Positions 10,197 through 58,769 of a stretch of DNA of 64,000 nt are shown here, piece by piece; position 1 is the first letter of the stretch, and each line of letters begins with the position of its first letter. The position numbers and the translations under genes are program-made. Under the pieces are notes generated by a model that made no database searches, was not told the DNA's origin, and saw only the letters and a list, made by a program, of their open reading frames with translations. Location of the stretch: NCBI GenBank assembly GCA_035535015.1, contig DATLQU010000035.1:10614-74613 (forward strand), in the 5' to 3' direction. The DNA comes from Acidimicrobiales bacterium. GTDB lineage: Bacteria > Actinomycetota > Acidimicrobiia > Acidimicrobiales > UBA8190.

Positions 10197-10454
10197 CTGA
10201 CGACCCTGTGATTCCCGTCACCGGCCGGCCACCTTCTCGGCGCGTGCGCAGGCGGCGACTCTCCGCGTATGTGCCTCGCTCGGTAGGTGTATAGCCCGTA
10301 GAAGGGTGCCGGGGAACGTCGGGGCGGCGGCTCAGGAACGATTCGAGCTCTTGGCGGGCTCGCCCCCCGCTCGTTCCACGCCGCCGAGAGCCGGCTCCCG
10401 AGCCCACGGCATCCATCGACCCGAGGTCCGATCGGTGGATAAGGTCACCGGGGT

Positions 10455-11504: not shown

Positions 11505-11580
11505 GCGGTGCCGGACTCCGGCGCCGGCCGGATCACCGAGGAATCAGTCCTTGCTCACCGGGCCCCGTACGACTGGTAGC

Positions 11581-11638
11581 GCCGTCCCCGGCGCTATGCC
11601 CAGGCCGTCCCCGGCGCTATGCCCAGGCCATCCCCGCC
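11581..11638. repeat. 23-bp tandem repeat, 2.5 copies
   Basis: gccgtccccggcgctatgcccag x2 (11581-11603 and 11604-11626), then a partial copy gccatccccgcc. Confidence 0.9.
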
Positions 11639-11969
11639 TTCACCTGGAACGCGCTGATCCCTCTGGTTCCCACGGTCCCACGGACCGGGCGGCGATCGCC
11701 TCAGGAGATTTCTGGACGACGGCGAAGTGTCGGCGGGCTTCGTCCACCGGCAGGTGGGCCAGCTCGAACCAGTCGGTCCGCATGAAGTCGACACTGCCAG
11801 GCACCGCGCACCCCGCCGCATGGCGTCAGCCACCCTGGTCGGCATGCCCTGCTCGGAGAGATGGCCGGGGAGTACTCGAAAAGGCCCGCACCGGTGCGGG
11901 GATAGCCCGTCTCGAACAGTGCGACGACCATGGCCAGAAGGGAGAAGGCCCGAGTGACGGGCACGGCCC

Positions 11970-13559
11970 CTATGGCGCACCGAGAGTCGGTGCCAGGGGA
12001 ATCATCTCCTCGTTCTCATAGGCGCGCAGACGGCCGAAGAGGTCACGCAGCTCGTTGCGACGAGACCGGTCGTTGGCATTGTTGACCAACTCCAGAGGAT
12101 CGGAGTCGTGGTCGTACCACTCGTGGTCCTGGTCGTCGAAGGCGCAGTCCAGATCGAAGAGCTTGCGACCCGGGTCCTTGCCCCACAGGCCGGTCGACGG
12201 CTTCCCGCCCCCCACGCCGTAGTAACGGGCGTACTTGGTCGTCCCGTCGAAGAAGCCCCGCAGGGCGTACCGGACATTGTTCAGATTCTGGGTCTGGGCC
12301 GAGTCCTGGGCGAACAGGACGTGGTCGCGGACCGACGCCGCCGGGTCGGTCAGGACCGGAGACAGATCGCGGCCCTGGAGTCCGGGGCTGTCGGCGGCAG
12401 TCGTCGCGGTGGGGTCGATCCCGGCCAGGGAGCAGATAGTGGCGGCCAGATCGACGTGGGTGGCCAGGGCGTCGGCGGCCGTGCCGGGGGGGGTCAGCCC
12501 GGGGGCCCGAACGTAGAGAGGGACCCGCATGATCTCGTCGTAGACGAAGGGACCTTTGGACCGCAGGCCGTGCGATCCACACATGTCACCGTGGTCGGAG
12601 GTGAAGATCACGACGGTGTCGTCGGCCGCCCCGCTGTCGTCCAGGGCTTCGAGCACGGTCCCGAGACTCCGGTCCGCCAGGCGGTGGAGTTCCACGTAGT
12701 AGTCGAGATGACGCAACCAGGCCTTCTTGTCGGACGGCTCGATGTATCCCCAGAGGCCGTGCTGCTGGTCCCAACGCCACTGCCGGTGGGCCTCGGGTTT
12801 GGCATGGAGGTCGTCGGAAAAGTTCGCCGGAAGTTCCTCGAAGATCTCCTCGTAGCTGTCTGTATAGATAGGAAGGGCGTCGTCCTCCTTCCAGGCCGCA
12901 CTCTCGAGGACGCGACGAATGCCCGCCACCTCTTCGGGATGGCGCTCGCGGTAGCCGGGCTGGTCGACCGGGAACCACATGACGTCATGGGGATTGACGA
13001 GGGCCACGGTCAAGAACCAGGGCGGCTCCGCCGAGCCGGTGGCGGCAGGACCGGCGTTGGTGCGAAGCCAGTGGGCGGCATTGGAGGCGATAACCGGATC
13101 GAAGTGGACGCCGGTCCCGGCCCAACCCATGAAGTGACGATCGTTGCCGTCCCAGTCGGAGAAGCCATAGGACTCCATGTCCGGATGTTCCGACTGCGAG
13201 AGGTGCCACTTGCCGATGTACGAGGAACGGTACCCGGCGGCCCGGAGCAGGGAGCCGACAGTGGGGACCGACGGGTCGAGCTCGGCGTGCTCCGGCATGA
13301 TCACGTTGTCCGTGACTCCATGGCCCGGGAGGTAGCGACCGGTGATGAGGCTGGCCCGGCTGGGCGAGCAGGGTGAGGAGTGGGTGTAATAGCGGGTGAA
13401 CTCGAGGCCTTCGGCGATCAGGCGATCGCGCCAGGGCAGACGGACCGAGGGGGGCAGCCAGGCCCGCTGACGTTCCTGGTCGGAGACGACGAGAAGGATG
13501 TTCGGACGACGGCTCTCCCTCGGCGTTCCCTGCTCTCGGCCTCTTTCTCCGTCGACCAC
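11970..13559 (-). CDS. Sulfatase (arylsulfatase family)
   Basis: NILLVVSDQ and the formylglycine signature HSSPCSPSRASLITGRY (C-x-P-x-R), plus FTSDHGD. I trimmed the 722-aa track ORF to the GTG at 13559, which has GGAGG 10 nt upstream. The longer N-terminus is Arg/Gly-rich and is antisense to the GNAT gene. Confidence 0.85.
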   Translation of the reverse strand: MVDGERGREQGTPRESRRPNILLVVSDQERQRAWLPPSVRLPWRDRLIAEGLEFTRYYTHSSPCSPSRASLITGRYLPGHGVTDNVIMPEHAELDPSVPTVGSLLRAAGYRSSYIGKWHLSQSEHPDMESYGFSDWDGNDRHFMGWAGTGVHFDPVIASNAAHWLRTNAGPAATGSAEPPWFLTVALVNPHDVMWFPVDQPGYRERHPEEVAGIRRVLESAAWKEDDALPIYTDSYEEIFEELPANFSDDLHAKPEAHRQWRWDQQHGLWGYIEPSDKKAWLRHLDYYVELHRLADRSLGTVLEALDDSGAADDTVVIFTSDHGDMCGSHGLRSKGPFVYDEIMRVPLYVRAPGLTPPGTAADALATHVDLAATICSLAGIDPTATTAADSPGLQGRDLSPVLTDPAASVRDHVLFAQDSAQTQNLNNVRYALRGFFDGTTKYARYYGVGGGKPSTGLWGKDPGRKLFDLDCAFDDQDHEWYDHDSDPLELVNNANDRSRRNELRDLFGRLRAYENEEMIPLAPTLGAP

Positions 13560-16261: not shown

Positions 16262-17554
16262 TCAAGCCGGAGTGGGTGGGTCCGGATGTTCGTGATCCCG
16301 GACGACGCCCCGAGGGCCGGCTCCGTCGGCCGTGGTGGCGTCGGTACCGGCGTCGACCCGTCGACGCCAGGCCGCCTCAGCCCTGATGACGACCTCACGG
16401 AGGGGGAGGCCGGTGCGCGCCGCCACGCGGGCGGCGTCGGCGTGTTCGACTTTGACCCGGCCCGGACTGACCTTCACCCGAACGGCCACTCCCTGCACTT
16501 CGACTTCGTCCATCGCCCTGGTGGCCGGCCATCGTTCCTGAGAGGTGGCCCGGACACCGAGACTGCCGGTCTCGGCTCGCAGTGTACGGCGAACGGATTC
16601 GGTGAGGGCGGGATCCACGAGCGCACTGACGGTGTGACCGGGGCGGCCTTTCTTCATGATGACGGGGGTGATCCAGGCGTCGAGGGCGCCCACGTCGAGA
16701 AGGGCCTGGACGGAATGGGCCAGGGTCTCACCGGTGGCGTCGTCGAGATTCGCTTCGAGCAGCAGCACCGGCTGTCCGGGCTGGGCCACGGCCAAGGACT
16801 GCCCCACCACGACCTGGGTGCAATTGGGGAGACCGTCGAGTTCGTTGCTCCCGGCGCCGAAACCCGACGAGGCGATCAGCATCGGGGGCAGCGGCCCGAA
16901 AGAGGTGGCCACGGCGGCGAGGAGGGCGGCGCCGGTGGGGGTGGTGAGCTCCACGGAGACATCGCGACCCCAGGTGGGAACTCCCTGGAGGAGCCGGACC
17001 ACGGCGGGCGAGGGGTTGGGGAGAAAGCCGTGGGAGGTGCGGACGGTGCCCGTGCCGGTGGCCACGGAGGACGCCGTGACGACGTCCACCCCGAGAACCT
17101 CGAGGGCGGCCGCCGTGCCGACGACGTCGATGATGGTGTCGTGCGAGCCGACCTCGTGGAAATGGACCTGGGCGGGTGATCGCCGGTGGAGTCGACCCTC
17201 GACGTCGGCCAGGGCGGCGAAAGTGTCGAGGGCCCGGCGGGCCACGCGGGGCGGGAGGCGGGCCTCTTCCACCAAACCGACGATGTGGGAGTGGGTGCGG
17301 ACGATGACGTCGTCGGTGACCTCCACCACGGCGCTGGTGGCGGCGATGCCGGCGCGCAGCACGGGCTCGGTGCTGAGATGCCAGCCGGAAAAAGGCAGGC
17401 GCTCCAGGAGATTCAGGACCTCGGTGAAATCAGCTCCGGCGTCGAGGAGGCTGCCGAGGGCCATGTCGCCGGCGATGCCGGCAAAGCAATGGAACCAGGC
17501 GATGGTCACCGATGGGCCCGATTCCGGCGCGGCCGGCCCGTGATGGCCGGTCAC
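16262..17554 (-). CDS. larC: LarC, nickel-pincer cofactor nickel insertion protein (DUF111 family)
   Basis: N-terminal FHCFAGIAGDMALGSLLDAGAD and overall length are typical of LarC. It overlaps the larB stop by 4 nt. Confidence 0.85.
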   Translation of the reverse strand: MTGHHGPAAPESGPSVTIAWFHCFAGIAGDMALGSLLDAGADFTEVLNLLERLPFSGWHLSTEPVLRAGIAATSAVVEVTDDVIVRTHSHIVGLVEEARLPPRVARRALDTFAALADVEGRLHRRSPAQVHFHEVGSHDTIIDVVGTAAALEVLGVDVVTASSVATGTGTVRTSHGFLPNPSPAVVRLLQGVPTWGRDVSVELTTPTGAALLAAVATSFGPLPPMLIASSGFGAGSNELDGLPNCTQVVVGQSLAVAQPGQPVLLLEANLDDATGETLAHSVQALLDVGALDAWITPVIMKKGRPGHTVSALVDPALTESVRRTLRAETGSLGVRATSQERWPATRAMDEVEVQGVAVRVKVSPGRVKVEHADAARVAARTGLPLREVVIRAEAAWRRRVDAGTDATTADGAGPRGVVRDHEHPDPPTPA

Positions 17555-18300
17555 GGCAGGATCCGGGCCACGGCGCAGGCGGCGCCGAATCCGTTGTCGA
17601 TACCGACAACGGTGAGGCCCGCGGCGCAGGATGCGTGCATGGCGAGGAGGGCGGTGACCCCTTCGAGGGCGGCGCCGTAGCCGGTGGAGACGGGAACGGC
17701 CACCACGGGGGCCCCGGTGATGCCGCCGACGAGACTGGCCAGCGCTCCCTCCATGCCGGCGACGACGACGACGGCATCGGCCTCGGCCAACTCATCGACC
17801 GAGGCCAGCAGACGATGGACCCCCGCCACCCCACAGTCGGCCAGGACGGTGGGGTGGAGTCCATAGGCGCGCAGGACGGCGACGCATTCGTCGGCCACCG
17901 GAAGGTCGGCGGTGCCCGCGGTGACGACCACCACCCGCCCGGGGCGCCGGGGGATGGGCCGCCAGACGACGGTGGTCAGAGTCCCGGTGGCCGTGATCTC
18001 GGCGCCGGGGGCCGCCTCGGCGGCGGCGGCGACCTGTGGCTCGTCGGCCCGGGTGAGCAGAACCGGGCCTCCGGCCGGCTCGGCGAGCAGCTCGGTGACG
18101 ATGAGGGCGCACTGCTGCGGGGTCTTCCCCGGCGCATAGACCGCCTCCCCCACCCTCTGGCGCAGGCGGCGGTGGTGGTCGACCCGGGCGAAGCCCAGGT
18201 CGGCATAGGGGAGGCGCCGCAGCCGGGCCACGGCTTCGTCGGGGGTGACGAGGCTGGCACGCACGTCGTCGAGGAGTTGGCGTAAGGCGGGCTCGTCCAT
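17551..18300 (-). CDS. larB: LarB, nickel-pincer cofactor biosynthesis carboxylase/hydrolase (PurE-like)
   Basis: VVVTAGTADLPVADE...VAGVHRL...VVVVAGMEGALASLVGGITGAPVVAVPVSTGYGAA...GFGAA. The start is set at MDEPALRQLL (18300). Confidence 0.85.
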   Translation of the reverse strand: MDEPALRQLLDDVRASLVTPDEAVARLRRLPYADLGFARVDHHRRLRQRVGEAVYAPGKTPQQCALIVTELLAEPAGGPVLLTRADEPQVAAAAEAAPGAEITATGTLTTVVWRPIPRRPGRVVVVTAGTADLPVADECVAVLRAYGLHPTVLADCGVAGVHRLLASVDELAEADAVVVVAGMEGALASLVGGITGAPVVAVPVSTGYGAALEGVTALLAMHASCAAGLTVVGIDNGFGAACAVARILP

Positions 18301-18323
18301 GGTCGCCACTATCCTGCCCGGAC

Positions 18324-19298
18324 ATGGAGACGGCTGCGACCTCACCGGGCAGCCCGGGATCGGGGGCGCAAAAGGGCACGATCGCCTTCCTGGGGCCGGC
18401 CGGCACCTTCACCGAGGAGGCCCTGTTCACCCAGGCCGACTACGCCTCGAAGACGGTGCTGCCGGTGGGAGGGCTACCGGAGGTGCTCGAAGCCGTGCAT
18501 AGCGGATCGGCCGACCTCGCCTTCGTGCCCATCGAGAATTCCATCGAAGGCACGGTGAACGCCATCGTGGACAGCCTGGTCTTCGACGTCGAGTTGCTGA
18601 TCCAACGCGAGGTCGTCCTGGACATCCACATGCAGTTGATGGCTCCGGCCGGATCGGACCTGGGATCGGTCCGACGGGTGCTGTCCTTTCCGCATGCCAG
18701 TGGCCAGTGCCGGCGCTTCCTGGCCGAGCAGCTTTCTGATGCCGAGGTGGTGCCGACCAACTCCACGGCCGAGGCGGCGCGGATCGTGGGCGAAGAGCGT
18801 CGGCTCGACACCGCCGCCCTGGCGCCCCGGTTGGCGGCGGAACTCTACGGGCTCGAGATCCTGGCGTCGGCGGTGGAGGATCATCCCGACAACCAGACGC
18901 GCTTCGTGGCTCTGGCGCCGAGCGGCATCCCGGCGCCGACGGGACACGACAAGACGAGCATCGTCTGTTTCCAGCGCGAGGACCGGCCGGGAAGCCTGCA
19001 TGCCATCCTGAGCGAATTCGCGGCCCGGAGCATCAACCTGACCAAGCTCGAGTCCCGACCGACGAAGCGGGGACTGGGTGACTACTGCTTTCTGATCGAC
19101 CTGTCCGGACACCTGGCCCACGAGGTGGTGGCCGACTGCCTCCGGGTACTGCACGCCGAGATCGCCGCCGTGAAGTTCCTCGGCTCCTACCCGGCGGCGG
19201 GCGAGCACGGCCCCGCTGCCCGCGAGCAGGCGGAAACGGCGTGGCGTGAGGCCGACGACTGGATCCGGTCGTTGCGGAGCCAGATCGCCCCGAGCTGA
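18324..19298 (+). CDS. pheA: Prephenate dehydratase
   Basis: IAFLGPAGTFTEEA and TRFV, plus an ACT domain (SIVCFQREDRPGSLHAILSEFAARSINLTKLESRPTK...GDYCFLIDL). Confidence 0.9.
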   Translation: METAATSPGSPGSGAQKGTIAFLGPAGTFTEEALFTQADYASKTVLPVGGLPEVLEAVHSGSADLAFVPIENSIEGTVNAIVDSLVFDVELLIQREVVLDIHMQLMAPAGSDLGSVRRVLSFPHASGQCRRFLAEQLSDAEVVPTNSTAEAARIVGEERRLDTAALAPRLAAELYGLEILASAVEDHPDNQTRFVALAPSGIPAPTGHDKTSIVCFQREDRPGSLHAILSEFAARSINLTKLESRPTKRGLGDYCFLIDLSGHLAHEVVADCLRVLHAEIAAVKFLGSYPAAGEHGPAAREQAETAWREADDWIRSLRSQIAPS

Positions 19299-30005: not shown

Positions 30006-31637
30006 TCAACAATGGGGGGTGTTGAGGACCGACTGGCTGTCGCCGGTGGCGCATTCCTCGTACGACGTCGGCGACCAGACAGCGCCGTTCGGAGGTATGA
30101 AGAAGGGAGGGAAGAGCGTCTGCAAGGACGTGTCGTAGTTGTAGTTCTTCAGGTATCCCGTGTGTCCCGTCGTCCCTACCGCTCCACGGAAGTTCTGGGC
30201 GATCGACCCGAAGACGTTGAGAGCGCCCAGACCGGAGGCCGACCACCAGTTGGTCACGTAGAAGGAGTCCTGGAGCGCCAGGATGGCGGCGTCGATCTCG
30301 ACGTGGGGGACGTCGGCGACGATGACGGAGTTCTGGGCGATGAGGCCGAGGGTGTCCGACGAGTCACTGGTCGGCTGGCCGTTCACCTTCACTATGTTGG
30401 CCGATGGATAGGTCAGGCTTCCTGTGATGGTGATGTTGGACGGCGCCGCGCTGCCTGTGCAACGGGCATTGGTGGCTGTCACCGTCGTGGTGCTGCACGT
30501 GACGATGTCGAGGCCGCCGGTCATCTGGCCGCTGATCGAGACATTGCCGTTCACGAAGATGAGGCCCGAAGTCAGCTGATCGACGGAGATCGGACTGGAG
30601 CAATTGTTGGTATTGGAAGCCACGTTGTCGACGGAGGCTCCGGAACCCGACCAGGTGACCTTCGTCGTGCCGCCGGCGATGCTCAACCCGAGCGTCACGT
30701 TCACGGGGCTGACGGAGTTCCCGCTTCCACCCGTGATGAAGCATCCGTAGGACCGGGCCGGGCTGAGGTCGGCCTCGGAGTTCTGGGGGATCTGGTTCCC
30801 CACCTTCTGGTAACCACTGCCGTTGGCGAAGTTCGGCACCGAACCCGAGCAGCCGCCGCCGTTGCCGTCGACGTAGACCGACGTGGGGCCGGTATTGGTG
30901 TTGTAGATGTTCCCGCTCTGGAGCCCGGCATCGAAGGTGGGCGAGCCACACAGACGAAAGGTGTCGTCGGAGAAGACCGGTCCGTTGAGCTCGTCGCCCG
31001 ACACGAAGACGACGATGCACCCCGGCGGTGGGCCGTACTGCGGGACGCTGTGGTTGCCGTTGGCGTAGTCGGGGTCGAGCTGCCCGTAGTGCACGCCGCA
31101 GTCGGCATATCCCGACGGGGGGTTCGGCATCTGGGCGGCGATGGTGGGGTCGAGGGTCTCGTAGTTGCTCCAGTAGACGTCGTCCAGCGTCGAAGCCGGG
31201 GCGACGGCGTACTGGAATGTGCGCACCACGGTTCCCGAACCGACCCCGGCCTTGCCCGTGACCTGGAGGCTGATGAGGCCCGAGTTGTTGTACGGCAGGT
31301 ACGAGTAGTACTCGGGAGGCGAGGTGGACGCCTGGACCCAGCCCGACATGGCGGGATTGCTGGGGTCTTTGTTGGTGGCCGTGTAGATGCCGTAGGCGCC
31401 GTTGCCATCGAGTTTCTGGAGATAGTCATTCAGGCCCGCCTGGGCGGCCTGGTAGGCGGCCTCGTAATTCAGATTGCGCGTCGTCTGGGGCAGCTGGTCC
31501 ACGGTGGTGGTGGCGATGGCGATGGGGATCGAGGCCAACAGGGTGACGGCGATCAGGACGAAGAGAAGAGCCTGGCCGCTCTCGCCCCCGAGGCTGCTCA
31601 GCCGGCTCCGGATCTGGCGCCCCACGATGGTCAACAT
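30006..31637 (-). CDS. PilX-N-terminal-like minor-pilin/pilus-tip protein (543 aa), third gene of the pilin-like operon
   Basis: Start at 31637 gives MLTIVGRQIRSRLSSLGGESGQALLFVLIAVTLLASIPIAIATT (a PilX_N-like hydrophobic helix without Glu5). It is followed by a large Thr/Ser/Gly/Asn-rich beta-type domain. It overlaps the upstream gene by 7 nt. Confidence 0.6.
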   Translation of the reverse strand: MLTIVGRQIRSRLSSLGGESGQALLFVLIAVTLLASIPIAIATTTVDQLPQTTRNLNYEAAYQAAQAGLNDYLQKLDGNGAYGIYTATNKDPSNPAMSGWVQASTSPPEYYSYLPYNNSGLISLQVTGKAGVGSGTVVRTFQYAVAPASTLDDVYWSNYETLDPTIAAQMPNPPSGYADCGVHYGQLDPDYANGNHSVPQYGPPPGCIVVFVSGDELNGPVFSDDTFRLCGSPTFDAGLQSGNIYNTNTGPTSVYVDGNGGGCSGSVPNFANGSGYQKVGNQIPQNSEADLSPARSYGCFITGGSGNSVSPVNVTLGLSIAGGTTKVTWSGSGASVDNVASNTNNCSSPISVDQLTSGLIFVNGNVSISGQMTGGLDIVTCSTTTVTATNARCTGSAAPSNITITGSLTYPSANIVKVNGQPTSDSSDTLGLIAQNSVIVADVPHVEIDAAILALQDSFYVTNWWSASGLGALNVFGSIAQNFRGAVGTTGHTGYLKNYNYDTSLQTLFPPFFIPPNGAVWSPTSYEECATGDSQSVLNTPHC

Positions 31638-32320
31638 GCGCCCGAGGCCCCTATCTGGCTCAAGGCGTACTGACACGCGTATTCGACGTTGTTGGTCACG
31701 ATGGTCGGGTCCGACAGCGTGGTCTGGGTGACCTTGGCCGCGCCCACCTTCGGGGTGTCCAGAACCAGAGTGGAGGCCGCGGACGTGAAGTAGAAGGTAT
31801 TGGTCGTCACATTGTGGACCGTGGTCGAGACTTCCTTTGTCGTGAGGGTGAACACGGTTGAGGAGTCGACGTTCTGGACACGGGCCTGGGTGATGACCGA
31901 GCCGGCTCCGGCGGTCGGCGTGCACCCCACCCCCGTGCAGGTCACGGTGAGGATGTGGGTGGACGTGTTCAGGGCGATGCTGATGGCCGGGGTGCCCCCG
32001 CCCAGTTTGGCCGAGAAGGCGAGGCTGGTGGCCGTGATCGGGGTTCCCGGAGGCGAGCTGGGCACAGCCGGGGCGGTCCACGTCGTGGTGGCGGCGTGGA
32101 GGTCACGGGTGATCGCCTGTTGGGCGCCCTGCATGTAGTCGAGCGCCTGGGTCCGGTCGGTCACCTGCACCTGGCGCGCCTGGATGACGGTGACAGAGGC
32201 GTCGACGGAGACGATCACGATGGTGAGCAGCAACGACGAGATGAGAACCTCGACCAGGCTCATGCCCGATTCGTCGCGTCGCCGTCCCCGCTGTCTCATT
32301 GGACGATCACGGTGGCTCAT
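31631..32320 (-). CDS. Prepilin-type N-terminal cleavage/methylation-domain protein (pseudopilin/minor pilin, 229 aa)
   Basis: Class III signal: MSHRDRPMRQRGRRRDESG|MSLVEVLISSLLLTIVIV, with Glu at +5. The ATG overlaps the upstream stop (ATGA at 32317-32320). Confidence 0.7.
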   Translation of the reverse strand: MSHRDRPMRQRGRRRDESGMSLVEVLISSLLLTIVIVSVDASVTVIQARQVQVTDRTQALDYMQGAQQAITRDLHAATTTWTAPAVPSSPPGTPITATSLAFSAKLGGGTPAISIALNTSTHILTVTCTGVGCTPTAGAGSVITQARVQNVDSSTVFTLTTKEVSTTVHNVTTNTFYFTSAASTLVLDTPKVGAAKVTQTTLSDPTIVTNNVEYACQYALSQIGASGAC

Positions 32321-34788
32321 TGCACGTTCACGGTGACCGACGCCCCCGGACCGAGGAGCGAGCTGCTGGCGAACGACCCCCCACTGGCGATGTAGAAGCC
32401 CGAGGGCGTGACCTTGATGACGACCTGGACCGCCTCGGTGGCCGAGCTGTAGCCGACGTGGGTCGAGGGGTTCGTCCATGTGGCGCTCAGCAGCCAGACG
32501 CCGTAGGGCAGGCCGACCAGGGTGTAGGGCGTGCCCGCCGGGACGCTTACGACCTGGGTCACGGTTCCCGTCGAGGTGGCGAAGCTGCCGCTGTTGGTGG
32601 CGGTGAAGACGGCGCTCAGCACCGTCGACCCGACCGGCGAGGCCGAGGTGGTGTAGGTGGCCATACCGAAGCCGTTGAGGGCCACCGTGGCCAATGTGGT
32701 CGAGCCGTTCATGAAGGCCACGCTCCCCTGGGCCGGGCCCCCCGACGCCGCCGTCACCGTGGCCGTCAGCGTGACCGGGCTGTTCCAGGAGCTCGGGTTG
32801 GCGCTGGAGGTGAGCGTCGTGCTCGTGCTCAAGGCGGTGACCTGCTGGGTCAAGGTGGAGGACGTGGAGGCCGCGAAATTGGCGGGCGACGGCGCGTAGG
32901 CAGCCGTCACGCTGTAGCTCCCGCCGGCCAGCCCGGACAGGGTGCAGTCGACGCTGCCCGCCGACAGGCTCAGGCTCACGCAGCCGCTGATGTCGCTGCC
33001 GCCGTTCTTGAAGGTGACCGTCCCGGTGGGGGTGGCCGTCGACGGCGAACTGGCGGCAACGGTGGCCGTCAGGATGGCCGAGGCGCCGTAGGCGCTGGGA
33101 TTGGGGTTCGACGTCACCGTGGTCGTGGTGGGGGCGGCCGTGATGGTCTGGGTCTTGGCCCACGAGGTGGAGGATGTCCACTTCCCCGACGCCTCGTAGG
33201 TGGCGGTGATGGAGAGCGAGCCGACGGGCAGGGCCGAGGTGCTGATCGACGCCACCCCGTTGTTCAGCGAGGAGTCGCTGCCGATGAACGTTCCTCCGTT
33301 GTAGAAGTCCACCGTGCCGGTGACCGGGCTACAACCCCAACCCCCCCAACCCGAGTCGCACGTCACGGTGGCGCTGAGCGTCACGGGCGAGCCGTAGGTC
33401 GCCGTGGACGGCGTCGACAGGGTGGTCGACGTCGAGCAATTGGAGCTGCAGCCCCAGACGAAGTAGGCGTGGCGGCGGTGCTTGCCCCGAACCTTGCTCG
33501 ACCAGGTGGCGGTGGTGGTGGACAGATTGAGCGTGGGCATCACCGTCGTGCCCGAGGTCGGGCAGTTGGTGTCGGTCCCGGTACCCGCCGCGTTCTTCAC
33601 CGCTGCCGTCACGGCCGCGCCCGACACCAGGCTGGCGCCCTGTTGCACGAAGATCTGGACGGGGACGAGGGGGATGGTGGGTGAGCCGGTGCCGCCGGCC
33701 GTCAGGGTGACGGGCTGGCCGTCGGTGGTGCCCCCGTCCGGCGCGCTCTCGGTGCCGCACGAACCGGCCACCACGTAGTAGCCGGGCGACCCGGCCATGG
33801 GGAAGACACTGGCCGGTGAAGCCGAGACGTAGGGGCTGACCACCAGGTTGCTGCTGTAGAACGACAGGGGCAGGCTGTTGATGTTGGACGGCAGAATGGG
33901 GTGCACCCCGTCGGCCATGGGGACCGAGTAGACGGCGTTGACCGTGGCCGCCCGGTCGTAGGCGGTGGCCGAGGCGGCACTGGCCCCCGGCGAGAACGTG
34001 ATGGACGTGGTGGAGCCGGCGGCCACCGACAGGTTCGACTGTGTCGGCAGGGTGGTCAGGTTCTGTTCGGTCAGGTAGCCGGACAGCGTGGCGAAGGAGA
34101 TCGTCCACGTCGTCGGCGAGACGGCCACGTTGGCGAACAACGCACAGCCGCCGGCGCTCGTCGTCACCGTCTGCGGACTTCCCGACGACGGCGTGGCCGT
34201 CACCGAAACATTGGCGATGGGATTGCCCGTCGCCCCCTGGATGCTGACCAGAATGGATCCGAGCGTCGGATTGATGGCCGAGGCGGGGACGGCCAACAGG
34301 CTGGTCTCCTGCACGAGGAGCTTCGTGGCCGCCGAGGAGCCGCTCAGCCACCAGGTGGCGCCTGCCTTCTGGTCGGTCCAGGTGGCCCAGATGGTCACCT
34401 TCAGCATGGCGCCGGGGTCGCTGGCCGGCGATTGGCACTGCGTGTAGGCGGGGTCGTAGGGAGCCACCTCCCTCTCGAGGAGGTAGGTCTGACCGGAGCT
34501 CAGCACCGGGGTCAGGGCGGTGTCCCCTTGCTGGCCGAGCAGGGTCGAGACGCCCGACGCCAGTTGCTGGTCGAGGGTGGCCGAGGCGATGGCCGTGGCC
34601 TGCTGCTCGTAACGCGAGTTGGCCCCGATCTTGAACGACGTCTGGAGCAGCGATGAGACGGCCGCCAGCACCGTCATCAAGATGGCCAGGGCGATGATGA
34701 TCTCGAGGATCGAGAAGCCCCACTCCCGGCGGCCGGCGTCATCGGTCGCCGACCGGGACGAGAGTCTCGTCGATCGCCCTGGAGACAT
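32317..34788 (-). CDS. Giant modular prepilin (~820 aa): class III signal peptide, pilin helix, carboxypeptidase-regulatory-like modules and three Ig-like (Big_3-type) repeats
   Basis: Start set at 34788: MSPGRSTRLSSRSATDDAGRREWG|FSILEIIIALAILMTVLAAV (Glu +5). Later segments are LVSIQGATGNPIANVSVTATPSSG...TTSAGGCALFANV, the Ig-like repeat endings SITATYEASGKWTSSTS / SVTAAYAPSPANFAASTS / SAVFTATNSGSFATSTG, and a final YTLVGLPYGVWLLSATW module. Confidence 0.7.
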   Translation of the reverse strand: MSPGRSTRLSSRSATDDAGRREWGFSILEIIIALAILMTVLAAVSSLLQTSFKIGANSRYEQQATAIASATLDQQLASGVSTLLGQQGDTALTPVLSSGQTYLLEREVAPYDPAYTQCQSPASDPGAMLKVTIWATWTDQKAGATWWLSGSSAATKLLVQETSLLAVPASAINPTLGSILVSIQGATGNPIANVSVTATPSSGSPQTVTTSAGGCALFANVAVSPTTWTISFATLSGYLTEQNLTTLPTQSNLSVAAGSTTSITFSPGASAASATAYDRAATVNAVYSVPMADGVHPILPSNINSLPLSFYSSNLVVSPYVSASPASVFPMAGSPGYYVVAGSCGTESAPDGGTTDGQPVTLTAGGTGSPTIPLVPVQIFVQQGASLVSGAAVTAAVKNAAGTGTDTNCPTSGTTVMPTLNLSTTTATWSSKVRGKHRRHAYFVWGCSSNCSTSTTLSTPSTATYGSPVTLSATVTCDSGWGGWGCSPVTGTVDFYNGGTFIGSDSSLNNGVASISTSALPVGSLSITATYEASGKWTSSTSWAKTQTITAAPTTTTVTSNPNPSAYGASAILTATVAASSPSTATPTGTVTFKNGGSDISGCVSLSLSAGSVDCTLSGLAGGSYSVTAAYAPSPANFAASTSSTLTQQVTALSTSTTLTSSANPSSWNSPVTLTATVTAASGGPAQGSVAFMNGSTTLATVALNGFGMATYTTSASPVGSTVLSAVFTATNSGSFATSTGTVTQVVSVPAGTPYTLVGLPYGVWLLSATWTNPSTHVGYSSATEAVQVVIKVTPSGFYIASGGSFASSSLLGPGASVTVNVQ

Positions 34789-34860
34789 GGGGCCGACACG
34801 TCCCGACGCCCGGCGCCACCCCCTACGATCACGGTCGATCAGCAAGTTCCCACTCCAAGT

Positions 34861-34912
34861 GACATCTTAACTACTATCTGTGTAATTAATAAGGGAAGGC
34901 CGTTATCTCGAG
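34861..34912. promoter_or_regulatory. Sharp AT-rich island upstream of the pilin-like operon (promoter candidate)
   Basis: gacatcttaactactatctgtgtaattaataagggaaggccgttatctcg stands out in otherwise very GC-rich DNA. It lies 70-120 bp upstream of the 34788 start. Confidence 0.4.
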
Positions 34913-34928
34913 CCCGACCCGCGGCTAC

Positions 34929-34992
34929 TTCTTCGGCAGATGCACGGCCGAAGTGAAGAAGACAGGCAGGAATGGACCCGGAGAACGGGTCC
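34929..34992. terminator. Two stem-loops downstream of the rhamnosidase gene (minus strand)
   Basis: ggacccg-gagaa-cgggtcc (34974-34992, perfect 7-bp stem) and cttcggc-N9-gccgaag (34931-34953). No U-tract follows, so terminator function is uncertain. Confidence 0.4.
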
Positions 34993-45168: not shown

Positions 45169-46392
45169 TCACGACTCGTCGGCGTCCCCCGGCTGGGACG
45201 AGGCGGCCAGGGGCAACACCCGTCGGGCAATCGTGTGCACGTCGATGCCCACGGCACCGGCCTCGCGGATGACCCTCCGGACGATCGACCCGCCACCCAT
45301 TAGCTCCTGCCAGCGACTGCGCTGGCTCGAACCGATCACGATCTGGGTGATCTGGTGCTCCCGGGCGAAACGGGTGAGAGCGCGCGCCGGGTCGTCGGCC
45401 GGTATCTCGTGCCACCGGGCACCGAGGTCGGCCGACAGGCCCCGCAGCTTGGCGATGGCCCCGCTCTCATCCCGACCGCTGCTGTCGCCGGCTAGGACAT
45501 GGACAACGTCGAGATCCCCTTTGACCCGGGAGGCGATCCGGGCGGCCCGTCGCAGCAGGATGTCGGTCCCGGGGGCGGCGGTCACCGCCACCATGATCCG
45601 CTCGGTGGTGTCCCAGACACCGGGGTCCTGGTGCCCTCGAAGGTGCTCGAGGAGCTCCTCCTCGGTCTCGTCGGCCAGGAACCGCAGCGCCAATTCCCGC
45701 AGCGCGATCAGGTTGTCGGTGCGGAAGAAGTGGGTGAGCGCCTGGGCAACCTTCTGTTTCGGGTAGATGTTGCCGTGCAGCATCCGTCGGCGCAGCTGTT
45801 CGGGCGAGGAGTCGACCAGCTCGATCTGATCGGCCTTGTGCACGACCCAGTCCGGCACCCGTTCACGCACCGGCGTCCCGGTCATCTGCTCCACGGCGTC
45901 GGCGATGCTCTCGAGGTGCTGGATGTTGACGGTGGTGATCACGTTGATCCCGGCGTCGAGGATCTCGAGGACGTCCTGCCACCGTTTCTCGTGGCGCCCC
46001 GATCCCGGCACGTTGGGGTGGGCCAGCTCGTCGACCAGGGCGAGCGTGGGTCGCCTCCGGATGACGGCGTCGACGTCCATCTCCTCGAACTGCGTCCCCC
46101 GGTAGTCGACCACCAGGCGAGGGACGACCTCGAGCTTGTCGATCTGCTCCTCGGTCAGCTGGCGCCCGTGACACTCGACGAAGCCGACGACGACATCGGT
46201 TCCGCGCTTCCGACGACGCCCACCTTCACTGAGCATGGCGTAGGTCTTGCCCACGCCCGCCGCTGCGCCCAGGTAGATGCGGAAATGCCCCGCCGCTTCG
46301 ACGACGTCAGTGGCGTCGGGATCGACCGCCGCCGCCTCACTCACGCCTTCGTCGGTCCCCTCGGAGCCCGTGTCCCTTCTGCCTTCGTCCAT
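45169..46392 (-). CDS. KdpD-like sensor lacking the membrane and histidine-kinase parts (KdpD N-terminal domain plus USP-like domain only)
   Basis: FRIYLGAAAGVGKTYAML...VVVGFVECHGR...INVITTVNIQHLES, then a USP-like block (RIMVAVTAAPG...ITQIVIGSS). The ORF ends after 407 aa. I found no TM helices, H-box or ATPase motifs. Confidence 0.8.
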   Translation of the reverse strand: MDEGRRDTGSEGTDEGVSEAAAVDPDATDVVEAAGHFRIYLGAAAGVGKTYAMLSEGGRRRKRGTDVVVGFVECHGRQLTEEQIDKLEVVPRLVVDYRGTQFEEMDVDAVIRRRPTLALVDELAHPNVPGSGRHEKRWQDVLEILDAGINVITTVNIQHLESIADAVEQMTGTPVRERVPDWVVHKADQIELVDSSPEQLRRRMLHGNIYPKQKVAQALTHFFRTDNLIALRELALRFLADETEEELLEHLRGHQDPGVWDTTERIMVAVTAAPGTDILLRRAARIASRVKGDLDVVHVLAGDSSGRDESGAIAKLRGLSADLGARWHEIPADDPARALTRFAREHQITQIVIGSSQRSRWQELMGGGSIVRRVIREAGAVGIDVHTIARRVLPLAASSQPGDADES

Positions 46393-46517
46393 TTCGACGG
46401 CTCTCTATCCGACGATGCGCTCGCCGACGGGCCCTAAGATGAGCATGGGCAGCTTCGGTGGCTTGGTCTCCGGCGGCGCCGCAACGGCTGTCGCTCTGCC
46501 GGGGGTGTGCGACTCGC

Positions 46518-46649
46518 TCACGCCTGGCCTGGCTGACGCTCGGGCGACGTCATCTCCGACTCGGCCTCGACATCCGCATCGGCGGTGACGCGACTGTAGG
46601 CGCACGCCACCAGGGCGACAACGACGAAGAAGGCCATAACGGTGGCCAC
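46518..46649 (-). CDS. Candidate 39-43-aa single-TM micro-ORF between the OB-fold gene and the kdpD-like gene
   Basis: Own translation: (VATV)MAFFVVVALVACAYSRVTADADVEAESEMTSPERQPGQA. No clear SD seen. Below the ORF-track cut-off. Confidence 0.25.
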   Translation of the reverse strand: MATVMAFFVVVALVACAYSRVTADADVEAESEMTSPERQPGQA

Positions 46650-46737
46650 CGGTAAGGACGACAGTCATGCCGGAAGCCCGTTCGTCCGAATGTGGGGACG
46701 ATTCCTCGCGAATCCTCGAGGACGGGTCTCCACGATT

Positions 46738-47052
46738 TCACAACTCGAACCGGTAGTGGGGATTCCACAAGAACAGCACACGTCCGTTGGATATCGCTGT
46801 GCCTTCGACCGTGCACTGAGCGCCCTTGACCATGCCGGGAACGGGTCGCCGTCCGCCAAATAGGATTGTGATGCAGCCGGTTTCGTCGTCGAGACGGCAG
46901 ATGTACGCCGGCATCCGACGCCACAGACCCACCTCCGTGTCGACAATCGTCCCTGTCACGACGACTCTCCGTTGGGGGTCGGCGTCGGCGATCCGGCGGG
47001 CGATCGGGCGCCCGCCCCACCAGTCGCCGGAGGCGGGTTCCCAGGCGTTCAC
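46738..47052 (-). CDS. Small OB-fold-like protein translationally coupled to kdpC
   Basis: 104 aa: RRVVVTGTIVDTEVGLWRRMPAYICRLDDETGCITILFGGRRPVPGMVKGAQCTVEGTA (beta-rich, OB-like). Its GTG start overlaps the kdpC stop (GTGA at 47049-47052). Confidence 0.55.
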   Translation of the reverse strand: MNAWEPASGDWWGGRPIARRIADADPQRRVVVTGTIVDTEVGLWRRMPAYICRLDDETGCITILFGGRRPVPGMVKGAQCTVEGTAISNGRVLFLWNPHYRFEL

Positions 47053-47651
47053 CGGAGGTGGGAAAGGGCCACGTTGAGCTCTAGCACGTTGATGTAGGAG
47101 CTGCCCAGGAAGCCGAGCTGGGCACCATGGGTTTCCCGGGCGATCAGGCTCCGCAGAGCCGACGGGGAGATGCCGGTTGCGCCCGACACCATCGGGATCT
47201 GAACGATGGCGTCCTGGGGGGCGATGTCGGGGTCGAGGCCGCTGCCCGAGGTGGTGACGAGGTCAGGAGTGGGATCGACGCCGCGCTTGTGCCAATAGGC
47301 GACGAGGGCCTGGGTGTTGGCCAACAGGATCTTCGAGCGGGGCCCGAGGTTGGTGGCGGCCGACTCCCCGCTCTTGCCGTTGGCCACCAGGGGGTTGTCA
47401 CCGACGCCTGCGTAGGGACCGAGGGCGTCGGGGCGACCCTGGAAGACGCAGCTGCCGTCGGGATGCCCCGGGCATTTCGTGGCCGACCAGTTCTGTCCGA
47501 TCAGGGTCGATCCGTTGGCAGTGACCGATCCGTCGGCCTGGTGCCGGAACAAGAGCTGAGCGACGCCGGTTCCGGCGAAGGCGTAGAGGAAGCCGAAGAA
47601 GACCGTGAAGACCACGATCGAGATGATTGACCGGCGGAGGTGGGCGAGCAT
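47049..47651 (-). CDS. kdpC: K+-transporting ATPase subunit C
   Basis: Position after kdpB, N-terminal TM helix, SGSGLDPDISP-like motif (TSGSGLDPDIAPQDA). Confidence 0.9.
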   Translation of the reverse strand: MLAHLRRSIISIVVFTVFFGFLYAFAGTGVAQLLFRHQADGSVTANGSTLIGQNWSATKCPGHPDGSCVFQGRPDALGPYAGVGDNPLVANGKSGESAATNLGPRSKILLANTQALVAYWHKRGVDPTPDLVTTSGSGLDPDIAPQDAIVQIPMVSGATGISPSALRSLIARETHGAQLGFLGSSYINVLELNVALSHLR

Positions 47652-47664
47652 CAGAAGATCTCCA

Positions 47665-49749
47665 TCAGTAGGCGTGGAGGGCCACGAGGATGAGGTCGAT
47701 GAGCTTGATGAAGATGAAGGGCACGATGACCCCGCCGAACCCGTAGATCAAGACGTTGCGACGTAGGATGGCGGACGACGAGGCAGCCCGGAACCGGACT
47801 CCGCGCAATGCCAGAGGGATCAGAGCCACGATCACGAGGGCGTTGAAGATCACCGCCGACAGCACCGCGCTCTGCGGGCTGTGCAGCTTCATGATGTTGA
47901 GCGCGTTCAGGGGCCCGGGGACGCCTGGTCGCGTGTAGAGGGTGGCAAACAGCGCCGGGATGATGGCGAAGTACTTGGCCACGTCGTTGGCGATGGAGAA
48001 GGTGGTGAGCGATCCGCGGGTGATGAGCAGCTGCTTCCCGATCTCGACCACGTCGATGAGCTTGGTCGGGTTCGAGTCGAGGTCGACCATGTTGCCGGCC
48101 TCTTTGGCCGCCGTCGTCCCCGTGTTCATGGCCACACCCACATCGGCTTGGGCCAGCGCCGGGGCATCGTTGGTGCCGTCGCCGGTCATGGCCACGAGCT
48201 TGCCCCCCTCCTGCTCGGACCGGATCAGGGCCATCTTCGCCTCCGGTGTGGCCTCGGCCAGGTAGTCGTCGACGCCCGCCTCCTGGGCGATGGCGGCGGC
48301 GGTCAGGGGGTTGTCGCCCGTGATCATCACGGTGCGGATACCCATCTGCCGCATCTCCTCGAACTTCTCCTTGATCCCCTGCTTGACCACGTCCTTCAGC
48401 TCGATGACGCCGAGGATCTTCTGGCCGTCGGCCACCACCAAAGGCGTCGAGCCGACCCGCGACGTCCGTTCCACGATGTCGTCGAGCCCGTCGGGGATAC
48501 TGCCCCCCTGATCGATCACCCACCGCTTCATCGACTCGGCCGCGCCCTTGCGGATCTGCCGGCCTTCGATGTCGAGTCCCGACATCCTGGTGGTGGCCGA
48601 GAAGGGGACGAAGATGTGTCCGGCGCCTAGATCGCGTTCCCGGATGTTGAAGCGCTCCTTGGCCAGTACCACGATGGAGCGGCCTTCCGGGGTCTCGTCG
48701 GCCAGCGACGCCAGCTGGGCGGCATCGGCCAGCTCCTCCTCGTCGTAACCGTCGGCGGGATAGAACGACGACGCCATGCGGTTGCCCAGGGTGATGGTGC
48801 CCGTCTTGTCGAGCAGCAGCGTCTGGACGTCGCCGGCCGCCTCGACGGCCCGGCCGCTCATGGCCAGGACGTTTCGCTGGACCAACCGATCCATCCCGGC
48901 GATGCCGATGGCCGACAGCAGCGCCCCGATGGTGGTGGGGATCAGGCACACGAGGAGCGCTACCAGGACGACCACCGACACCGAGGTGCCCGAGTAGTGG
49001 GCGAACGGCTGGAGAGCCACAACCACGGGCAGGAACACGATCGTCAGGACGGAGAGGAGGATGGTGAGGGCGATCTCGTTCGGCGTCTTCTGTCGATTGG
49101 CCCCCTCCACCAGGGTGATCATGCGGTCGAGGAAGGTCTTGCCCCGTTCGGCCGTGATACGCACGACGATGCGGTCCGACAGCACCCTGGTGCCGCCGGT
49201 CACCGCCGAGCGGTCCCCGCCGGACTCCCGGATGACGGGGGCGGATTCACCGGTGATGGCCGACTCGTCCACCGACGCCACCCCTTCGATGATCTCGCCG
49301 TCGGACGGGATGGGATCGTTCGCCTGGCAGACCACCAGATCGCCTTTGGCCAACGTCGAGGCCGGTACCCGCTCCTCGGTCCCATCGTCACTCAGCCGTC
49401 GGGCTTCGGTCTCCGAACGCATCTTGCGCAGGGTGTCGGCCTGGGCCTTGCCCCGACCTTCGGCCATGGCCTCGGCGAAGTTGGCGAACGTCACCGTCAG
49501 GAACAGCCAGATGGTGATGGACCAGTCGAAGATGCCCGGGTGAGCGATGGCCTCGATGAACGTGACGATCGTCCCGATCAGAACCACGAACATGACGGGG
49601 TTCTTTACCTGGACCAAGGGGTTGAACTTCTTGAAGGCGTCGACCCCCGCATGGCGGAGGATCTCACCGTCGAAAAGGCTCCGGGCCTCGGCCACGCCGT
49701 GGGGGGTAGAGCCGGGTTGGGGCTGCGGTTGTGTGGTCAGGGTTGTCAT
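47665..49749 (-). CDS. kdpB: K+-transporting P-type ATPase subunit B
   Basis: [21 protein letters not shown] and [18 protein letters not shown] trimmed the track ORF to MTTLTTQPQ at 49749, an ATGA overlap with the kdpA stop. Confidence 0.92.
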
Positions 49750-51437
49750 CAGAAGAACTTTCCGTGGCTGAGTTGTTCGACGAGGGGGCCGAGGGCGACG
49801 GCCGGGAAGAAGGTGAGGCCGCCGATGATCACGATCACGCCGATGACGAGGCCGACGAACATGCCGTTGTCGGTCCTGAACGTGCCCAACGACGCTGGGA
49901 CCACGTTCTTGGCTGCCAGCACACCCCCGAGGGCGAGCGCCGGGATAATGATGCCGAACCTGCCGATCAGCATGTCGATGGCGCCGATGACGTTGTAGAA
50001 GGTGGTGTTCCCGGTGAGGCCGGCCATGGCCGATCCGTTGTTGTTGCCCTGCGACGTAAGTCCATAGAGGATCTCGGTGAACCCGTGCGGGCCGGAGTTG
50101 AGCGGTCCCGCCCGCCCGGCGTGGATCGACACGGCGATGGCGGTGAGCACGAGCACGGTGATCGGCATCACCAGGGCGGCCAGGCCCGCCAGCTTCACCT
50201 CCTTGGCTTGGATCTTCTTGCCCAAGTACTCCGGTGTTCGCCCGATCATGAGTCCGCCGATGAACACGGCGATGATGGCGTAGATCAGGATCGTGTACAG
50301 CCCGCTTCCCACCCCCCCAGGGGTGACCTCGCCCAGCATCATGCCGGTGAGGGGGCCGAAGCCGCCCATGGGGTTGTACGAGTCGGTGGCGCTGTCGACG
50401 GCCCCGTCGGAGGTCTGGGTCATCGACACGTTGAACAAGGCGCTGCTCGTGTCGCCGAATCGAGTCTCCTTGCCCTCTGTGTTCCCGACCTTCGAATGGA
50501 CACCGGCGGCAGCGACGGCGGGGTTGTTCTGGTGCTCGGAGTAGCTGGTGAATCCCACCCACACCCCGAAGATGAGCACCATGGCGGCCAGGAGGGCTAC
50601 CCCGTGCTTGATACTGCCCACCATCTTGCCGAAGGTGTACGTCAGTGCGAACGGGATGGAGAGCGTGAGCCAGATGTAGAGCAGGTTGGTGATCGCCGTG
50701 GGGTTCTCGAGGGGGTGGGCGAGGTCAACGTCGAAGAACCCACCGCCGTTGGTCCCGAGCTGCATGATGGGACCCATGAACCCGGCGGGGCCACGGGGGA
50801 TGGTCTGACTCACGCCGTTGAGCGAATCATGGATCGTGATCGGCCCGGCCAGGGTCTGCACAGCTCCGGCGCCCACGATGATGATGCCGGAGAGGAAGGC
50901 GATCGGGAGCAGGATGTAGAGCAGGCAACGGGTGATGTCGACCCAGAAGTTGCCGATCGTGGGAGAGTTCCGGCGAGTGAAGCCCCGCGCCATGGCGATC
51001 GCCACGGCGATGCCGACGGCGGCGCTCACGAACTGCTGCACTGTCAGAACGCCGATCTGGGAGAAGTACGACATGGCTGTCTCGCCGCCGTAGTTCTGCC
51101 AGTTGGTATTGGTCGTGAACGACGCGATCGTGTTGAAACTGAGCGCCGGCGGTACGGCGCCGAAATGCTGCGGGTTGAGCGGTAGGGACCCTTGAATCCT
51201 CAGCAGCAGATAGCCCACGCCAAGGACCGCGCCAGAGAAAATCACCGTCGAGCCGGCGTAGCGCTTCCAGCTCTGCTCGTGGTCGGGACCCGTCCCGAGA
51301 AGCCGGTAGAACGGCCGCTCGGCCCAGGCAAAGTAGTGAACTCGACCGTCGAAGACGGCGGCCATGTACGAACCCAAGTACCGCCAGGTGATCCCCAGGG
51401 CGATGACCAGGACGACGATTGTCCAGAAGAAGCCCAT
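49749..51437 (-). CDS. kdpA: K+-transporting ATPase subunit A
   Basis: ~560-aa polytopic protein starting [11 protein letters not shown]. It has the conserved [10 protein letters not shown] block and sits between kdpF and kdpB. Confidence 0.92.
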
Positions 51438-51526
51438 TAGAACCACTCAGGCTTGAACATGGCCACGGCGAGATAGATGAAGACGGCGATGGCGACGGCC
51501 AGCAGGATTCCTTGAACGACGGTCAT
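51437..51526 (-). CDS. kdpF: K+-transporting ATPase subunit F (29 aa)
   Basis: Own translation: MTVVQGILLAVAIAVFIYLAVAMFKPEWF. Its TAA shares one nucleotide with the kdpA ATG (TAATG). Confidence 0.75.
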   Translation of the reverse strand: MTVVQGILLAVAIAVFIYLAVAMFKPEWF

Positions 51527-58745: not shown

Positions 58746-58769
58746 CGGCTCCCTCGGCCGGTGGCTCGC

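Follow-up and report, generated by a model that had tools for sequence, protein, structure and literature searches.

We analysed a 64-kb window from an Acidimicrobiales bacterium (the whole 64,000-nucleotide stretch, positions 10,614 to 74,613 of contig DATLQU010000035.1) and examined within it a minus-strand operon of three pilin-like genes, here named g1, g2 and g3. The operon, which is free-standing here, quite likely encodes the core minor pilins that prime and tip a type IV pilus in a monoderm actinobacterium. Judged by homology, the trio appears to be an ordinary minor-pilin set and an ordinary variant of a known system. The decisive evidence for assigning it as the core minor-pilin set of an actinobacterial pilus is that homologous trios sit within complete pilus clusters of other Acidimicrobiales and Actinomycetota. 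We infer that the three proteins form a trimer, that this trimer lies at the tip and functions as an adhesin, and that the machinery is encoded elsewhere in the genome.

Homologous trios in pilus clusters

The homologous loci compared are labeled L0xx and the homologous proteins compared P0xxx. In L006, L007 and L009 the gene order is trio-PilD-PilM-PilN-PilO, while L025 reads PilB-PilT-PilC-PilA-g1-g3-PilD-PilM, with no g2-like gene identified, as the one candidate for it proved to be the g1 ORF. L035 is arranged as PilB-PilC-PilA-x-PilMN-PilO-g1-g2-g3, L040 has the same arrangement, and the cultured Acidiferrimicrobium sp. IK (L041), a genus placed in the Acidimicrobiaceae in the NCBI taxonomy, carries PilB-PilB2-PilC-PilA-PilMN-PilO-g1-g2-g3 with a g1 of 498 amino acids (aa). 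The L035 and L040 trios are 30–36% identical to the window trio (32–36% for g1). An extension of g1 by immunoglobulin-like (Ig) repeats occurs within complete clusters too, as the g1 proteins of L035 (883 aa) and L040 (803 aa) both contain Big_3_5. A second, more divergent trio type is found in L023, L027, L030 and L032 (at ~9000–12000 in each), with a g3 of ~680 aa and a g2 of ~300 aa that ends ...S/TxVG; this type likewise has no pilus machinery within 10 kb.

Operon layout and gene starts

In the list of open reading frames (ORFs) of the window, g1, g2 and g3 are three overlapping minus-strand ORFs (Table 1). The stop of g1 and the start of g2 overlap as ATGA (32320-32317), and the g2 stop and g3 start share the seven nucleotides ATGTTGA (31637-31631), all of it as described in the initial annotation of this DNA. 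These overlaps are read as translational coupling of the trio and support its being an operon. The g1 and g3 proteins are identical to proteins of an Acidimicrobiales metagenome-assembled genome (MAG), annotated there as 'Ig-like domain repeat protein' and 'hypothetical protein', respectively. Cysteine counts are even across the trio (10, 4 and 10), as opposed to 0 in the neighboring genes, and the three proteins are rich in Ser and Thr, which together looks like an extracytoplasmic signature.

Table 1 Coordinates of the trio, the domains of g1 and the upstream elements.
Feature	Coordinates	Strand	Description
g1	32317..34845	-	842 aa from TTG 34845; 823 aa from annotated ATG 34788
g2	31631..32320	-	229 aa; small minor prepilin; N_methyl 20.6 bits, below cut-off
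g3	30006..31637	-	543 aa; ComZ/GspK/PilX-like cap pilin
g1 cleavage site and pilin module	34279..34719	-	Gly24/Phe25, Glu29 = +5; from motif, conservation and model
g1 middle region	33499..34260	-	CarboxypepD_reg/SdrD_B-like beta-sandwich (177-265) and second beta-rich domain (277-430), conserved Cys
g1 Big_3_5 repeats (three)	32533..33432	-	residues 453-552, 553-653 and 654-752; Pfam PF16640, E = 3.1e-40
g1 C-terminal beta-sandwich	32320..32532	-	residues 753-823; model pLDDT 78-92
AT-rich promoter-like region	34861..34912	-	-10-like TAAGAT 34869-34864, then Shine-Dalgarno GGAG 34856-34853 and TTG 34845
Inverted repeat	34925..34961	-	CTTCTTCACTTCGGCCGTGCATCTGCCGAAGAAGTAG (CTTCGGC-N9-GCCGAAG), between rhamnosidase stop and g1 promoter region

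Alignment of the upstream regions of relatives shows that a GGAG Shine-Dalgarno sequence and a TTG or GTG codon are conserved ahead of g1. Because this conserved GGAG-N7-[TG]TG precedes it (34843-34856), TTG 34845 is favored as the g1 start, which suggests a true product of 842 aa with a 43-aa leader. For g2, public gene calls take the Met in position +1 of the processed pilin as the start, giving 210 aa, and so drop the leader peptide (32264-32320). Homologues with F, V or I in position +1 keep the leader motif RDE[SA]G, and Gly-1 is kept as well; with both leader and Gly-1 conserved, the 229-aa start appears to be the correct one. The start codons of both g1 and g2 in the public gene calls are therefore probably wrong.

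Prepilin signals

The window was scanned in all six frames with a regular expression for class III signal peptides, filtered for at least 20 hydrophobic or small residues after the motif. Only two matches in the 64 kb pass the filter, RREWG/FSILE at 34719 in g1 and DESG/MSLVE at 32266 in g2 (the slash marks the cleavage site), each followed by a hydrophobic/small stretch of 20–21 residues. In 26 homologues of g1, reaching down to 38% identity, E29 is invariant and G24, F25 and S26 are at least 90% conserved; in 14 homologues of g2, G19, E24 and C229 are invariant. The curated cut-offs of the corresponding profiles are 21.2 bits for Pfam N_methyl (PF07963) and 16.3 bits for TIGR02532. Homologues P0113 and the g1 of L025 (24.4 bits) pass the N_methyl cut-off, and TIGR02532 scores 11.3 bits on g2 against its 16.3-bit cut-off. 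The site in g3, G21/QALLF, is conserved in homologues and is without Glu5. The class III signal peptides with Glu at +5 originally attributed to the first two genes are thus present, conserved and the only two such motifs in the window that pass the filter. A doubt that had been raised about the g1 leader is also settled, as the Gly/Phe site precedes the helix and is the same from either start codon (TTG 34845 or ATG 34788); the leader is unusually long, at 43 or 23 aa depending on the start.

g1, a modular pilin with an Ig-repeat stalk

g1 is a modular GspI/PilV-like minor prepilin. Its AlphaFold2 (AF2) model, with a predicted local distance difference test score (pLDDT) of 74.8, places the pilin module in an α1 helix (residues 27–77) followed by a four-stranded sheet (88 to ~166). 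Helix and sheet make up the lollipop fold of pilins, which the g3 model shows too. The NCBIfam XpsI/GspI model gives a weak, sub-threshold match to residues 24–144 that covers almost the entire profile. Residues 179–270 match SdrD_B (E = 1e-3) and MG4 (E = 0.056) weakly in Pfam. The C-terminus (...GPGASVTVNVQ) has no LPXTG motif, hydrophobic tail or membrane anchor, and a Foldseek search with the whole model returned generic multi-Ig/macroglobulin matches and nothing specific. The initial description of a large Ig-repeat pilin of about 820 aa is borne out by a product of 823 aa from the ATG and three Big_3_5 repeats at E = 3e-40. The carboxypeptidase-regulatory-like modules named alongside them are matched weakly here; PF13620 is matched by the L034/L035 genes and by homologues P0121, P0126, P0129 and P0143.

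Homologues of g1 of ~800 aa with Big_3_5 are frequent in Acidimicrobiales, down to ~35% identity, and keep GFS[IL]LE. The length of the displayed stalk appears to vary in evolution. Homologues of at least 1300 aa with additional Ig repeats were seen in L016 (3835-9121), L019 (4726-8562), P0104 and P0139. Elsewhere in the window, a secreted protein of 468 aa (3759-5165, plus strand) begins with a Sec-type signal peptide and contains Big_3_5 but no pilin helix; its repeats are 31–33% identical to those of g1, so the same Ig module serves a non-pilin surface protein of the same genome.

A modular pilin has been defined as an N-terminal prepilin motif joined to one or more domains that are not particular to pili, and such proteins occur widely, over 1,200 members in 264 architectures being known (PMC8179133). 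g1 combines the prepilin motif with three Big_3_5 domains in just this way. It is plausible that g1 acts as a displayed adhesin stalk, in keeping with the initial annotation. The further suggestion that it replaces a PilY1-type tip protein is not supported, and g3 is the better candidate for that role (see below). No Pfam match to the PilY1/PilC beta-propeller (PF05567/IPR008707) was obtained at E ≤ 1 in g1, g2 or g3, and no gene for such a propeller is present among the annotated neighbors.

g2 and g3

The small pilin g2 is cleaved between Gly19 and Met20 according to its motif, with Glu24 at +5, and has a C-terminal Cys216-Cys229 pair. Among 14 members of its family, weak matches were obtained to ComGE (12/14), PRK10557 (12/14), HpsC (9/14) and GspJ (4/14), the weakly matched models including PpdB-like and GspI ones. 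A profile-sequence search of the PDB with the g2 family returned N-terminal pilin helices and nothing more useful. The g2 of L019 holds an insertion of ~140 aa.

g3, which contains 10 Cys, was modeled by AF2 with a pLDDT of 77.6 and a predicted template modeling score (pTM) of 0.68. The elements of the model follow the order helix (21–78), sheet (101–162), beta-rich insertion (~165–510) and final strand (519–528), and the insertion of ~350 residues is predicted to be solenoid-like. Foldseek against the PDB returned a single significant match, Thermus thermophilus ComZ (6qvi; E = 4.7e-8, probability 1.0), the next being unrelated at E = 0.15. In ComZ, a GspK-like pilin, a beta-solenoid is inserted ahead of the last strand; a position at the tip of the pilus has been argued for this protein, which binds both the GspI-like PilA2 and DNA (PMC6561018). 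The topology of g3, with its helix, sheet, long beta insertion and last strand, fits that of ComZ.

Pfam has no family for the window g3, and the GspK model (NF037980) reaches E = 0.042 and 13.4 bits on its N-terminus, compared with a 130-bit cut-off. Within the g3 family, weak matches were seen to DUF4900 (15/26) and PilX_N (5/26). The PilX-N-like helix noted initially for this gene is present at the N-terminus of the model; the PilX_N profile itself does not match the window g3. Glu5 is absent from g3 and from all homologues, close and distant (GFTMI..., GWTLI...), and a missing Glu5 is a hallmark of cap pilins (bioRxiv 10.64898/2026.02.12.705559). The same work proposes that solenoid-bearing PilX proteins of cyanobacteria are tip plugs that replace PilY1. 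Because the g3 model matches the solenoid-bearing tip pilin ComZ, a PilY1-like plug role would be better given to g3 than to g1. Taken as a pilin-like operon, the three genes support the originally suggested PilV/PilW/PilX-type (GspI/J/K) set.

Upstream region and base composition

The AT-rich island ahead of g1 is real. In L010, L012, L013 and L015, the TAGTAGTTAAGAT / GGTTAAACT block and GGAGTGAG-AA-[GT]TG are conserved upstream of g1, and on this conservation the island is probably a promoter and ribosome-binding region; a sigma-70 consensus scan found no promoter in 34861-34912. The ACTTCGG...CCGAAGTAG core of the adjacent inverted repeat is kept in the upstream alignment of the same four loci, and a terminator-like site is flagged just upstream of the repeat (34980-34963). 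The repeat may serve the operon as an operator, or it may be where the rhamnosidase gene terminates.

The total GC content of the operon is 0.63–0.69, compared with 0.69–0.75 in its neighbors, so the dip reported initially is genuine. It is confined to the first codon position, where the trio has 0.51–0.55 and the flanking genes 0.64–0.71, while GC at the third position (GC3) is 0.93 in g1, 0.87 in g2 and 0.88 in g3, equal to that of the neighbors (rhamnosidase 0.89, HtrA 0.85). Ser and Thr make up 20–31% of the trio proteins (31% in g1) and there is little Arg; we attribute the low GC to this composition, which lowers codon position 1, and not to foreign codon usage. That the operon is a recently acquired foreign island, as had been read from the GC dip and the AT-rich segment upstream, is accordingly very improbable. 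The neighborhood guanylate cyclase-NHL-rhamnosidase-trio-HtrA-ParA is conserved in four related species loci (g3 60–79% identical), the AT-rich segment is itself conserved in relatives as a promoter-like element, and no tRNA, integrase or repeat boundaries are found among the annotated neighbors. We therefore reject horizontal transfer on the native GC3/codon-position pattern and the conserved synteny.

Weighing the assignment

Several observations weigh against reading the operon as the core minor-pilin set of a pilus. The N_methyl scores of g1 (19.3 bits) and g2 (20.6 bits) fall just below the cut-off, g2 owes its PilW/GspJ-like label to the place of its gene and to weak matches at the N-terminus, and g3 matches neither PilX_N (PF14341) nor GspK at curated thresholds. 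The TM-score of the ComZ match is low (0.25), and a profile-sequence search of the PDB with the g3 family gave no ComZ or other useful match. The remaining points concern the pilus machinery. Pfam annotation of the contig from ~9 kb left to ~8 kb right of the window (~82 kb), together with two scanned gaps, revealed none of it and no major pilin. Machinery and major pilin genes are also absent from the 10 kb around each of 13 related, likewise detached trios (L010-L022), which are Acidimicrobiaceae/Acidimicrobiales MAG loci that include a 4.01-Mb chromosome and whose g3 is 35–79% identical. The genome scan for related loci used search patterns from a 14-sequence alignment, a 26-sequence alignment being too divergent for patterns. 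Finally, the best 120 of 4043 PilC matches, all of at least 57% identity, include none on the long contigs of the clade, among them the 4.01-Mb chromosome; this is not evidence of absence, as these matches are saturated at 57% identity or more.

In agreement with the initial annotation, tblastn with cluster-derived PilB, PilT, PilC, PilD, PilM, PilN and PilO gave no match in the window, and the Pfam annotation likewise shows no pilus machinery there. A complete cluster just outside the window, which had been entertained, is not seen over the ~9 kb to the left or the ~8 kb to the right. As the 13 related loci also lack nearby machinery, detachment is a trait of the clade. An exceptional orphan status is not supported: homologous trios are embedded in complete clusters, including versions with a Big_3_5 g1, and the related loci are detached in the same way. 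In well-studied systems it is normal for a minor-pilin operon to be detached, as fimU-pilVWXY1E is in Pseudomonas aeruginosa.

Given a core minor-pilin set, a mechanism can be proposed. All three proteins would enter the membrane by their N-terminal hydrophobic helix, and prepilin peptidase would cut behind the conserved Gly in g1 and g2 and probably behind Gly21 in g3. The three helices would then bundle into a GspI-GspJ-GspK-like trimer, in which g3, with no Glu5 and a ComZ-like solenoid, would cap the trimer and reach the distal tip of the filament, its solenoid serving as a tip plug or adhesin. g2 and g1 would lie beneath g3, and the PilB/PilC/PilM-N-O machine would polymerize the major pilin below them. 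The pilin module of g1 would anchor ~650 residues of serial beta-sandwich and Ig domains that project near the tip as an adhesin or spacer stalk. In related Acidimicrobiaceae, as in the window MAG, the operon would now be self-contained, with a promoter of its own and at a distance from the genes of the machinery. As Gly-1 and Glu5 are invariant across the clade, processing and filament-type assembly are presumably still under selection.

It is possible, though doubtful, that the trio is a second, specialized priming set, a paralogue, present in addition to a canonical trio within a complete pilus cluster elsewhere in the genome, that reprograms the shared machine to make, for example, a pilus adhering to a particular polysaccharide; Myxococcus and cyanobacteria, with their several minor-pilin sets, are comparable cases. 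Two trio types exist among Acidimicrobiaceae MAGs, the window type and the type with a ~680-aa g3, and both are detached; the low identity of the L035/L040 trios to the window trio is compatible with paralogy; a case in which two core sets prime distinct filaments is already known; and, among the closest relatives, the genes for an alpha-L-rhamnosidase and an NHL-repeat protein keep their synteny with the trio. This rhamnosidase synteny is, however, lost in L011, L014, L020 and remoter loci, and a functional link between trio and rhamnosidase is kept as speculation, since the synteny holds in the closest relatives only. A candidate link of both sets to one genome also fails on composition. The complete cluster of L040 and the detached trio of L004 (the same contig as L015) share the ENA identifier ERZ25039540, which appears to denote a sample assembly, and their placement in one genome was rejected because GC differs (63.8% versus 69.0%); the tetranucleotide distance between them is 0.035, compared with ~0.010 for true relatives. 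The idea that the trio has been uncoupled in one clade as an autonomous module, either as an extra priming complex that retargets the ligand or as a machinery-independent surface complex where the genome has lost PilB/PilC/PilD, is unlikely; given the rhamnosidase synteny, the retargeted ligand would possibly be plant or microbial rhamnose-containing glycans.

The ComZ match also raises the possibility of a DNA-uptake pseudopilus, in which the g3-g1 pair would be a DNA receptor, and not an adhesin, at the tip of a competence pilus, as ComZ/PilA2 is in Thermus. ComZ is the sole structural match of g3 and binds DNA, and family members show weak ComGE/ComGF profile matches. A fold match does not carry ligand specificity, the two DNA-binding lysines of ComZ cannot be mapped onto g3, and g3 is poor in Lys (1.3%); the homologous clusters have PilM/N/O and PilT and are type IVa pilus-like and not Com-like, and a long Ig stalk such as that of g1 is more typical of adhesins. 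We consider this function rather improbable. That the machinery has been lost altogether, leaving signal-anchor helices to hold the Ig stalk and the solenoid at the surface, is improbable. The absence of machinery near any of the 13 detached trios is in its favor, as is the absence of a PilC of at least 57% identity, among the best 120 of 4043 matches, from the 4.01-Mb chromosome and from clade contigs of 2.25 and 2.71 Mb; this PilC evidence extends only to those best 120 matches, and a cultured Acidimicrobiaceae relative has complete machinery. Invariance of Gly-1 and Glu+5 over the detached clade (g3 35–79% identical) would be hard to explain without peptidase processing and helix packing of the filament type. 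We therefore retain the core minor-pilin set as the preferred assignment.

Other genes nearby and significance

A sortase gene lies ~6–9 kb to the left of window position 1 (L036, 1160-4473), adjoining a gene for a 792-aa protein without a Pfam domain, which the sortase may act on or which may form another type of surface fiber on the same contig. Cyclic-di-GMP genes (PAS-GGDEF-EAL and EAL-HDOD) are found near pilus genes at ~54131-57064 (minus strand) in the window, at 2351-3559 in L040 and at 1-1794 in L041, and MshEN domains occur on the PilB paralogues of complete clusters; this hints at cyclic-di-GMP control of these pili. Unrelated gene sets of the window (16262-18408, minus; 45169-51446, minus; 56511-60863) comprise LarC/LarB-like nickel-pincer cofactor genes, kdpA/C/D for potassium transport, and an end-joining cluster of ATP-dependent ligase, LigD primase-polymerase and PHP/PolX.

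To our knowledge, the type IV pili of Actinomycetota, and of Acidimicrobiia above all, are almost unstudied. The analysis defines a phylum-wide trio of a GspI-like, often modular pilin, a small pilin and a ComZ-like solenoid cap. Recognition of this trio permits correct annotation of proteins whose public labels are mostly 'hypothetical' or 'Ig-like domain repeat protein'. Current models are not overturned; the solenoid-capped, PilY1-less tip design of Thermus and cyanobacteria is extended to monoderm actinobacteria. The range in size of g1, a core tip pilin whose Ig repeats have expanded naturally to different degrees (498 to more than 1300 aa), offers material for the study of adhesin display by pili, and the complete cluster of the cultured Acidiferrimicrobium sp. 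IK makes the prediction testable.

Comparison with known systems

The trio differs from sortase-assembled Gram-positive pili, as g1 has no LPXTG and the sole sortase is more than 35 kb away, outside the window. It also differs from the ComG pseudopilus, since ComGE/ComGF reach 15–17 bits against cut-offs of 49–80 and the homologous clusters carry PilM/N/O and PilT. The resemblance to GspI-GspJ-GspK and PilV-PilW-PilX is closer, with three co-translated pilin-like genes of which the last is large and lacks Glu5 while the others keep Gly-1 and Glu5. Here, however, all profile matches are far below curated cut-offs, there is no fourth (GspH/FimU-like) gene or PilY1 gene at the operon, and the insertion in g3 is predicted to be a beta-solenoid, whereas that of GspK is an alpha-domain.

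In the ComZ-PilA2 pair of Thermus thermophilus (PDB 6QVI, PMC6561018), ComZ is similar in size to g3 (554 versus 543 aa) and likewise has an N-terminal hydrophobic helix. In both, a very large beta-rich insertion breaks the pilin sheet ahead of its last strand, as far as the g3 model shows, and the gene lies beside genes for small GspI-like pilins. The two proteins have no detectable sequence similarity and a TM-score of 0.25, PilA2 has no counterpart to the ~650-aa C-terminal extension borne by g1, and Thermus is a diderm with a secretin, in contrast to the monoderm actinobacterial host here.

The cyanobacterial PilX-EPS and HpsA-HpsC sets (bioRxiv 10.64898/2026.02.12.705559) offer a further parallel, with a solenoid-bearing PilX as the proposed replacement of PilY1, more than one minor-pilin set in a genome, which can be encoded away from the machinery, and an HpsC model weakly matched by 9/14 members of the g2 family. 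They belong to another phylum, the matches are weak and mostly N-terminal, and no polysaccharide-secretion genes are adjacent here. g1 itself is most like the modular pilins PilB and PilC of Streptococcus sanguinis (PMC8179133), in which domains foreign to pili come after a small pilin module at the N-terminus and the proposed role is the display of a binding module on the filament. The modules differ, being vWA/lectin in Streptococcus sanguinis and, in g1, a series made up of a CarboxypepD_reg-like sandwich, a second beta-rich domain, the three Big_3_5 repeats and the C-terminal sandwich. The carrier would differ as well: PilB and PilC are accessory pilins, while in g1 the carrier is probably a core, GspI-like subunit.

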